This document shows positions 2,078 to 2,287 of a stretch of DNA of 31,548 nucleotides, one piece after another. Under the pieces are notes generated by a model. It did not search any database. It was given only the letters and a program-made list of their open reading frames with translations, and was not told where the DNA came from. Made by a program: the position numbers and the translations under genes. Origin of the DNA: Candidatus Dormibacterales bacterium (GTDB taxonomy: Bacteria > Chloroflexota > Dormibacteria > Dormibacterales > Dormibacteraceae); NCBI GenBank assembly GCA_038253595.1, contig JBBSHA010000001.1:1-31548 (forward strand). Direction: 5' to 3'. Numbering within the stretch: the first letter of the stretch is position 1; each line of letters opens with the position of its first letter.

Positions 2078-2261
2078 AAAGTTCACTGCCGTGAGGCTAA
2101 GGAGGTGAGGCCGAGTTGGATCAACCTAATCGTGGAGCCGACCGCCTCGTTCGCCAGCCGGGGGCGCCGGAGGACATCCTCTAAGCGCTGCCGACATTCC
2201 TCTTCGGCTCCCGGAGTCGGAGGTGGAGAGCTCCGCGAGAATCAGCGTTCGTCTGTGAATT
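2078..2261 (+). ncRNA. Candidate structured RNA with 6S (SsrS)-like geometry, ~184 nt
   Basis: Begins 6 nt after TATACT. AGUUCAC (2080-86) pairs with GUGAAUU (2255-61); GAGUU (2113-17) with AGCUC (2229-33); GGAGCCGA (2134-41) with UCGGCUCC (2204-11). An unpaired stretch 2118-2133 and a strong hairpin follow. Folded by hand, no covariance model run. Confidence 0.45.
2116..2184 (+). CDS. Putative 22-aa peptide MDQPNRGADRLVRQPGAPEDIL inside the RNA candidate
   Basis: Perfect SD AAGGAGGTGA (2099-2108), 7 nt, TTG, then TAA at 2182-84. Confidence 0.3.
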   Translation: MDQPNRGADRLVRQPGAPEDIL

Positions 2262-2262
2262 G

Positions 2263-2287
2263 CGGCCGGGGCCCCTGGCCCCGGCCG
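2263..2287 (+). terminator. GC hairpin (11-bp stem, 3-nt loop), candidate terminator or processing stem
   Basis: CGGCCGGGGCC-CCT-GGCCCCGGCCG followed by TAGTCTT (weak U tract). Confidence 0.5.

Follow-up and report, generated by a model that had tools for sequence, protein, structure and literature searches.

The window analysed here, a stretch of 31,548 nucleotides (nt) from a Candidatus Dormibacterales bacterium (GenBank assembly GCA_038253595.1, contig JBBSHA010000001.1, positions 1 to 31,548), carries at positions 2078-2287 of the forward strand a region that is probably a free-standing gene for a folded small messenger RNA (mRNA) of about 210 nt. The RNA would act at the ribosome, would be bistable and would follow a design resembling that of the alphaproteobacterial rreB and rreR mini-mRNAs, and it is not a 6S RNA. 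The invariant element of the gene is AAGGAGGUGAGG, alongside an invariant UUG start codon. Dormibacteria (formerly AD3) are abundant soil bacteria; to our knowledge they have never been cultured and their regulatory RNAs are undescribed, and a literature search on Dormibacteria RNAs found none.

Comparison by blastn revealed counterparts with 72-84% nucleotide identity to the flagged stretch in 23 of the 24 genera of the family, a level far above what chance would give, so that the RNA is better conserved than the flanking proteins, the neighbouring PaaI showing 52-76% amino-acid identity. A covariance model (R1) built from 19 sequences recovers a single full-length copy from 137 of the order's 151 genomes and from 50 of the 52 high-quality ones, the order, which belongs to Candidatus Dormibacteria, consisting of this one family. 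The same model finds no match in 102 genomes across the four other families of the class, nor in 146 other genomes of the phylum sample. Paralogous copies were considered and rejected, the weak second matches being the same RNA cut by contig ends. Occurring once in nearly every genome of the order, the RNA therefore probably does something important. More than 120 soil metagenome contigs also carry it. No Rfam family matches the RNA at its gathering score in the window, at E ≤ 10 over positions 1950-2350 (4227 models) or at E ≤ 5 at 12 homologous loci. Counts of the reading frame and of the Shine-Dalgarno sequence (SD) given below refer to 79 full-length genome copies and 80 distinct metagenome copies, 159 together. 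Genomes flagged as unpublished (G121, G138, G147 and G154 in the R1 tally, G013 in the blastn search with the 6S-like locus described below and G207 in the pattern search for the 16S tail) are counted in the tallies; L023, which derives from G121, is one row of alignment A2 and of the frame counts, and no conclusion rests on the flagged genomes.

The gene has a ribosome-binding site that is predicted to be very strong. The extended SD AAGGAGGUGA (2099-2108, +) is 10 nt long in this genome and 11 nt (AAAGGAGGUGA) in most relatives, and within it AAGGAGGTGAGG shows no variation among the 79 full-length homologues, about half of them having been found independently of the motif. The 3' tail of the 16S ribosomal RNA (rRNA), taken from two genomes of the family, reads GGAUCACCUCCUUU, and AAAGGAGGUGA is an 11-nt perfect complement of it, with a predicted duplex of 11 bp at -18 to -19 kcal/mol; the complement (10 nt in the window) is then broken by a mismatch at GG. 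Only seven such 10-mers occur in the 2.07-Mb assembly. A pattern search of the class for the full-length complement of the 16S tail is probably dominated by 16S genes, the one match that was checked (in G008) being the 16S gene itself. A UUG start follows AAGGAGGTGA in every one of the 159 copies, 79 from genomes and 80 from metagenomes, AUG or GUG being found in none, at a spacing of usually 7-9 nt (4-5 nt in a few copies). In one lineage the usual UUG is missing and an in-frame UUG 3 nt upstream takes over. The frame that opens here has 22 codons and ends at a UAA (2116-2184, +; stop codon 2182-2184), and it is open in all 159 distinct copies, with 22-24 codons to a UAG or UAA as a rule and a range of 19-25.

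The manner in which this frame varies suggests that it is the act of loading a ribosome that has been preserved. Its length in the 79 genome copies is restricted to 69, 72 or 75 nt, in contrast to the spacer following the stop codon, for which every length from 24 to 34 nt occurs, and the sole length change within the frame falls in an apical hairpin loop (18 vs 21 nt). The ratio of non-synonymous to synonymous changes (pN/pS) is 0.88 in the frame and 1.37 and 0.59 in the two alternative frames; entropy is 0.35, 0.55 and 0.48 at the three codon positions, so that the second varies most. Compensatory changes in the stems described below freely replace residues (R by H, G by K), and conservation of those stems is equal on the coding strand and on the non-coding 3' strand. 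From these sequence comparisons the amino acids of the peptide appear to be free of purifying selection; as the frame is nevertheless always open, ribosome loading and not the peptide seems to be what is selected.

The best-supported fold of the RNA is a long rod, one strand of which is the frame itself. Its 5' strand (2130-2167, +) covers codons 5-17 and covaries with a non-coding 3' strand (2207-2238, +) that holds a second purine tract, GGAGUCGGAGG; the helices are 2130-2138:2230-2238, 2142-2148:2220-2227, 2153-2154:2216-2217 and 2158-2165:2207-2214, separated by small internal loops. On 80 sequences 97.9% of cells are paired and 14 pairs have changed on both sides, none of 500 shuffles pairs as well, and registers slid along either strand all collapse to about 45% paired; where both strands could change, both did. 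A three-way junction caps the rod. One of its arms in the minimum free energy (MFE) fold is an apical hairpin (2169-2182, +) that extends on its 3' side into the stop codon and, as helix 8 of the model, has 99.7% of cells paired and two pairs changed on both sides; the third arm (2190-2208, +), likewise from the MFE fold, is variable in sequence and length, with many indels in relatives. The rod leaves the RNA unpaired from the SD to codon 4, the segment 2108-2129 lying 5' of it. Further upstream a small hairpin (2088-2097, +) with a GCC/GGC stem has three invariant G-C pairs and a variable fourth; 90% of its cells are paired with almost no covariation, and its 3' arm is shared with a helix that buries the SD.

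This second helix involves a pyrimidine-rich, anti-SD-like tract inside the frame (2142-2155, +), which we propose as the switch element. When the nascent 5' part, from the RNA start to the stop codon, is folded, the SD region 2095-2107 pairs with 2143-2155 in 12 of 12 diverse homologues. The helix has 12 bp with one mismatch and is 99.2% paired on the 80 sequences; it has no double changes because both its strands are almost invariant, and every observed change in the pyrimidine tract keeps its pairing with the invariant SD. In this alternative fold the 3' strand alone can form a hairpin of its own (94% paired). Single-sequence MFE prediction on full-length cores gives the SD-buried fold in 59 of 79 cases and the rod in 20, with a mean energy difference between the folds of -4.5 +/- 2.9 kcal/mol out of about -75, which puts the two near each other in predicted energy. 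With a further purine tract of similar make-up on the 3' strand, the single pyrimidine tract has two competing purine partners, and the RNA may be bistable. Two other ways of hiding the SD were set aside. Burial by the 5' segment CACUGCC (helix 1 of the first consensus) is 88% paired and is broken at one pair in 32 of 80 cells with no compensation; the neighbouring register GAGGCG:CGCCUC is possible, its one double change, in a single sequence, is indistinguishable from shuffles, and RNAfold prefers the SD-burying register given above. One of the alternatives raised in the initial annotation, a small-peptide mRNA with a sequestered ribosome-binding site that is translated after refolding, fits this evidence quite well, the SD, the UUG and the frame being kept in every homologue and a conserved alternative helix being able to bury the SD.

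The limits of the gene are consistent with an independent transcript. A conserved core of about 163 nt (2078-2240, +) matches R1 with 156.6 bits. Upstream of it stands the -10 promoter hexamer TATACT (2066-2071, +), with a predicted transcription start at about 2078-2079; a TAnnnT hexamer (TACACT, TATACT, TAGACT or TAGAAT), often preceded by TG, lies 34-36 nt 5' of the SD in 60 of 79 homologues, and a generic sigma-70 scan of the window returned no complete -35/-10 pair for the RNA gene. Downstream lies a terminator-type GC hairpin of 11 bp (2263-2287, +), which has a poor U-tract in this genome and was missed by a generic terminator scan because its T-run is weak. A stable GC-rich hairpin is present 3' of the core in 81 of 82 homologues, with at least 11 bp in 76 of 81 and at least four U within 9 nt after it in 66 of 81, the hairpin sequence itself being unconserved. 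The region folds at -103 kcal/mol and is more stable than its shuffles (z = -3.1), and the individual signals that the initial annotation had read from the DNA (TATACT, the SD, the TTG at 2116 with its 22-codon frame and the 11-bp hairpin) are all present. A search of RNA runs at the locus listed two runs that matched only flanking parts, from unrelated organisms, and a query with the RNA only listed none.

A mechanism can be proposed that would join these features. The 5' part of the RNA has the make-up of an open ribosome-loading site, with the 10-11-nt complement of the 16S tail, the 7-9-nt spacer and the invariant, weak UUG, at which docking of the 30S subunit and initiation would matter rather than the peptide. 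In a closed state, which could form first during transcription, the tract 2142-2155 would pair with the SD; in the rod state the same tract would pair with the 3' purine strand and the SD would be exposed. A ribosome reading the frame would then unzip the rod and free the 3' strand. On a still broader and more speculative view, which we regard as rather unlikely, mini-mRNAs of the rre kind might be ribosome-gated RNA switches that span phyla and are no peculiarity of Alphaproteobacteria: in Dormibacteria the 30S subunit would contend with the anti-SD mimic for the SD, initiation at the frame or its translation would unzip the rod and release the SD-like purines GGAGUCGGAGG of the 3' strand, and the RNA would report or tune the pool of free ribosomes, or make a regulatory strand accessible solely during ribosome activity.

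Several points weigh against the reading of the locus as a bistable mRNA of rre-like design that acts at the ribosome. The closed state is predicted from conservation and thermodynamics only, without compensatory changes, and the ends of the transcript, its binding to ribosomes, its translation and the switch are likewise predictions from sequence. The frame ends differently in two of the 80 metagenome copies, after 19 and 25 codons, and on the PaaI tree the frame-preserving indels amount to only about three length events. The SD complementarity of 10-11 nt, at a normal spacing of 7-9 nt, differs from the 16-17 nt reaching to the start codon that are the hallmark of the rre RNAs. Finally, a paaI gene follows on the same strand in 74 of 79 loci, so that an effect in cis through read-through or promoter occlusion may exist.

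The last of these points is the basis of an alternative in which the RNA is a cis-acting leader, a leader-peptide attenuator or a riboswitch-like element, that controls paaI through the terminator at 2263-2287. The gene, which encodes a PaaI-family thioesterase (Pfam 4HBT), lies 50-280 nt after the core in those 74 of the 79 assessable loci, a linkage tighter than that with the upstream galT, and the succession of a short frame, a hairpin joining the frame to downstream RNA and a terminator resembles the classical attenuator layout. Set against this, paaI has a promoter of leaderless type of its own after the terminator: a -10 hexamer (TAGGAT or TACGAT) stands 6-10 nt before its start codon, ATG or GTG among the loci, in 55 of 74 loci, and here TAGTCT is found within 2288-2306, directly after the RNA terminator, so that paaI is probably expressed as a leaderless or near-leaderless mRNA. 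The RNA is also kept intact where a convergent gene lies 3' of it (a GalE-like epimerase in L010, E = 1.7e-58; an AlkZ-related gene in L133; an open reading frame in L005) and in G011, whose paaI orthologue is on another contig, and no copy was found beside paaI homologues in sister families searched with filters off. An antiterminator in which the 3' strand would capture the 5' arm of the terminator was rejected, the best duplex in 77 homologues averaging -13.9 kcal/mol and so not going beyond chance (-12.4 kcal/mol for shuffled arms; -25.3 kcal/mol for the terminator itself), and the peptide has no run of regulatory codons. Neither the antiterminator pairing nor the promoterless regulated gene travelling with the element that would be looked for in an attenuator was thus found, and we judge control of paaI in this way to be unlikely. 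Galactose genes recur in the neighbourhood: galT is divergent upstream (997-2051, -), galK follows the RNA in L009, and it is a GalE-like gene that converges on it in L010.

A quite doubtful alternative is that the locus is an ordinary small-protein gene, the peptide of 22-24 residues (M-D-x-P-S/N-R-G-A-x-R-L-V-C-x-P-G...) being the effector and the fold only tuning expression or stability. The retention of SD, start, frame and stop in every copy, the near invariance of D, P, R-G-A, R-L-V-C and P-G, and an unpaired Pro codon that varies mainly at its third position are what such a gene would show. Every conserved residue, however, falls within a stem or the switch tract, third positions that are unpaired do not vary, and the C-terminal half is unconstrained, with shifted ends in two copies; the pN/pS, the variable second positions, the equal conservation of the non-coding 3' strand and the residue-altering compensatory changes set out above point the same way.

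Conversely, the locus might encode a non-translated small RNA (sRNA) that base-pairs in trans or binds a protein, its SD-like tract being a helix strand or a seed and the frame a by-product of conservation. Conservation is at the nucleotide level throughout with no coding signature, the SD tract has a conserved internal partner, and the promoter and terminator of its own are those of a classical sRNA. Against it, chance alone is very unlikely to have placed a perfect 11-nt complement of the 16S tail 7-9 nt ahead of a start codon; the spacer, although its sequence differs and its length shifts by +/-1 nt, stays within the functional range; the lineage that lacks the usual UUG has an in-frame replacement; and indels in the frame of the genome copies are multiples of three where the flanks vary freely. 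This possibility, too, we hold to be improbable.

The headline proposal of the initial annotation, namely a 6S RNA, divergent or a second one, by which RNA polymerase would be sequestered and from which short product RNAs would be copied, now has next to no likelihood. In size (near 180-200 nt) and in its largely helical fold the RNA is 6S-like, as it is in having a promoter of its own and a stretch near nt 31-52 that is unpaired, but the locus has no match to the 6S model RF00013 at E ≤ 10 and 12 homologues have none at E ≤ 5; in the covariance-model search of the window the gathering cut-off of 46.4 bits was not reached. A full-length RF00013 match of 33.5 bits is found instead at another locus of the same genome, outside the window (G000:C46:1510-1689, +; the same as L001:1501-1680), homologues of which match 6S end to end with 42.9 bits (G007) and 31.6 bits (G008), all three scores being below the Rfam cut-off, and blastn detects this locus in 15 of 18 genomes of the family. 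It is likely the true 6S RNA of the genome, and the Rfam model seems to under-score Dormibacteria. Because this other conserved locus matches 6S end to end, the outcome named in advance as fatal to the 6S proposal, a different 6S elsewhere and none here, is essentially what was observed. The 6S-like architecture proposed with it is not upheld by the relatives. The closing stem 2080-86:2255-61 does pair in the window (six Watson-Crick pairs and one G-U) but is not conserved, its 3' partner lying outside the conserved core in an unalignable linker, with the terminator 5-9 nt after the core in most relatives. The apical stem 2134-41:2204-11 is a perfect complement here and is not conserved either: over 80 homologues 72.7% of its cells are paired, a value reached by 476 of 500 shuffles, and the covarying partner of 2130-2138 is 2230-2238. 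The unpaired segment (2108-2129) is real but is no internal bubble; it lies outside the rod, on its 5' side, at the ribosome-loading site. Identity with signal recognition particle (SRP) RNA or transfer-messenger RNA (tmRNA) was rejected, both being found elsewhere in five of five relatives.

The suggestion of a protein-sequestering RNA, a sponge of the CsrB/RsmZ type titrating a CsrA-like protein through GGA motifs, fails as well and is hardly credible: the eight GGA triplets in 2101-2227 are there as reported, where the window average predicts about 2.4 in 127 nt, but most of them lie inside covarying stems or the SD and not in hairpin loops, and no CsrA gene (PF02599) was found in five genomes, that of the window and four high-quality relatives, in which positive controls were detected.

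Some observations bear on the use of the RNA in annotation. Eight loci (L079, L083, L089, L101, L120, L128, L133 and L135) carry this order-specific RNA, most with an adjacent paaI, in metagenome-assembled genomes (MAGs) that are assigned in their NCBI titles to other groups (Limnocylindrales, Verrucomicrobiia, Bacillota, Sulfotelmatobacter, Terriglobales and Actinomycetes); the odd titles come from submitter labels or mis-binned contigs. The RNA also often lies exactly at the ends of MAG contigs (G049:C63:1-164, G085:C111:4-168, G083:C105:5-149 and L143-L147), and metagenome assemblies may break there, as they do at rRNA genes, because strains living together share so conserved a sequence. 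As a marker of the lineage the RNA could point out Dormibacteria contigs that are listed under other phyla, and the covariance model provides annotators with a new RNA family.

Several known systems can be set beside the RNA. With 6S RNA (SsrS, RF00013) it shares length, a mostly helical fold and the character of an abundant-type small RNA gene with its own promoter, and it differs in having no conserved closing stem or central bubble and in possessing a ribosome-binding site and a frame. Attenuators such as trpL and thrL, or translational attenuation of the ermC type, likewise have a short frame that pairs with downstream RNA, two pairings that compete for one tract and a terminator before a gene on the same strand; here, by contrast, a promoter placed behind the terminator serves the downstream gene, neither antiterminator complementarity nor a run of regulatory codons was found, and genomes in which the gene has been relocated still keep the RNA. 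Dual-function sRNAs (SgrS/SgrT, RNAIII/hld, SR1/SR1P) also combine a structured small RNA with a translatable short frame, but their peptide is a conserved product apart from the base-pairing domain, whereas here it is unselected and its frame lies in the main helix.

The closest analogues in kind would appear to be rreB of Bradyrhizobiaceae and rreR of Rhodobacterales, small mRNAs with an extended SD (Hahn et al. 2016, RNA Biol 14:1353; PMC5711450). rreB is a free-standing mRNA of 165 nt with a 14-codon frame and a 17-nt complement of the 16S tail reaching its GUG start; it binds the 30S subunit strongly, is weakly translated and is turned over in a manner that depends on the start codon, and its cellular role is unknown (PMC5711450). 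The hallmark of the family is complementarity to the 16S 3' end of at least 16-17 nt up to the first base of the start codon, the frames starting with GUG and having 14 or 18 codons, and the RreB and RreR peptides are reported to be conserved (PMC5711450). The Dormibacteria RNA resembles them as a free-standing transcript found clade-wide, with its own promoter and terminator as predicted from the sequence (rreB measures 165 nt; here the core has about 165 nt, to which the terminator is added), with an unusually long invariant complement of the 16S tail, with a conserved non-AUG start and a very short frame that is open in all relatives (159 of 159 copies), and with a conserved fold that can bury part of the SD. 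It differs in its UUG start and 22-24 codons, in a frame that is itself one strand of a long covarying rod, and in the peptide, since the clade-wide conservation of a small protein was not found here at the amino-acid level (pN/pS 0.88). It also has no similarity in sequence or by Rfam to them, with no match to RF01867 (CC2171) or RF02471 (Ms_IGR-5) in the search with all 4227 models at E ≤ 10 or in that of the 12 homologues at E ≤ 5, and it belongs to Chloroflexota/Dormibacteria rather than Alphaproteobacteria. It is thus a variant of the rre kind and not a member of the rre family. The enigmatic rre-type design, with its strong docking site, weak start, tiny frame and folded body, is in this way extended to another phylum in altered form, and its recurrence strengthens the case that RNAs of the rre type are a general, as yet unexplained way of interacting with the ribosome.

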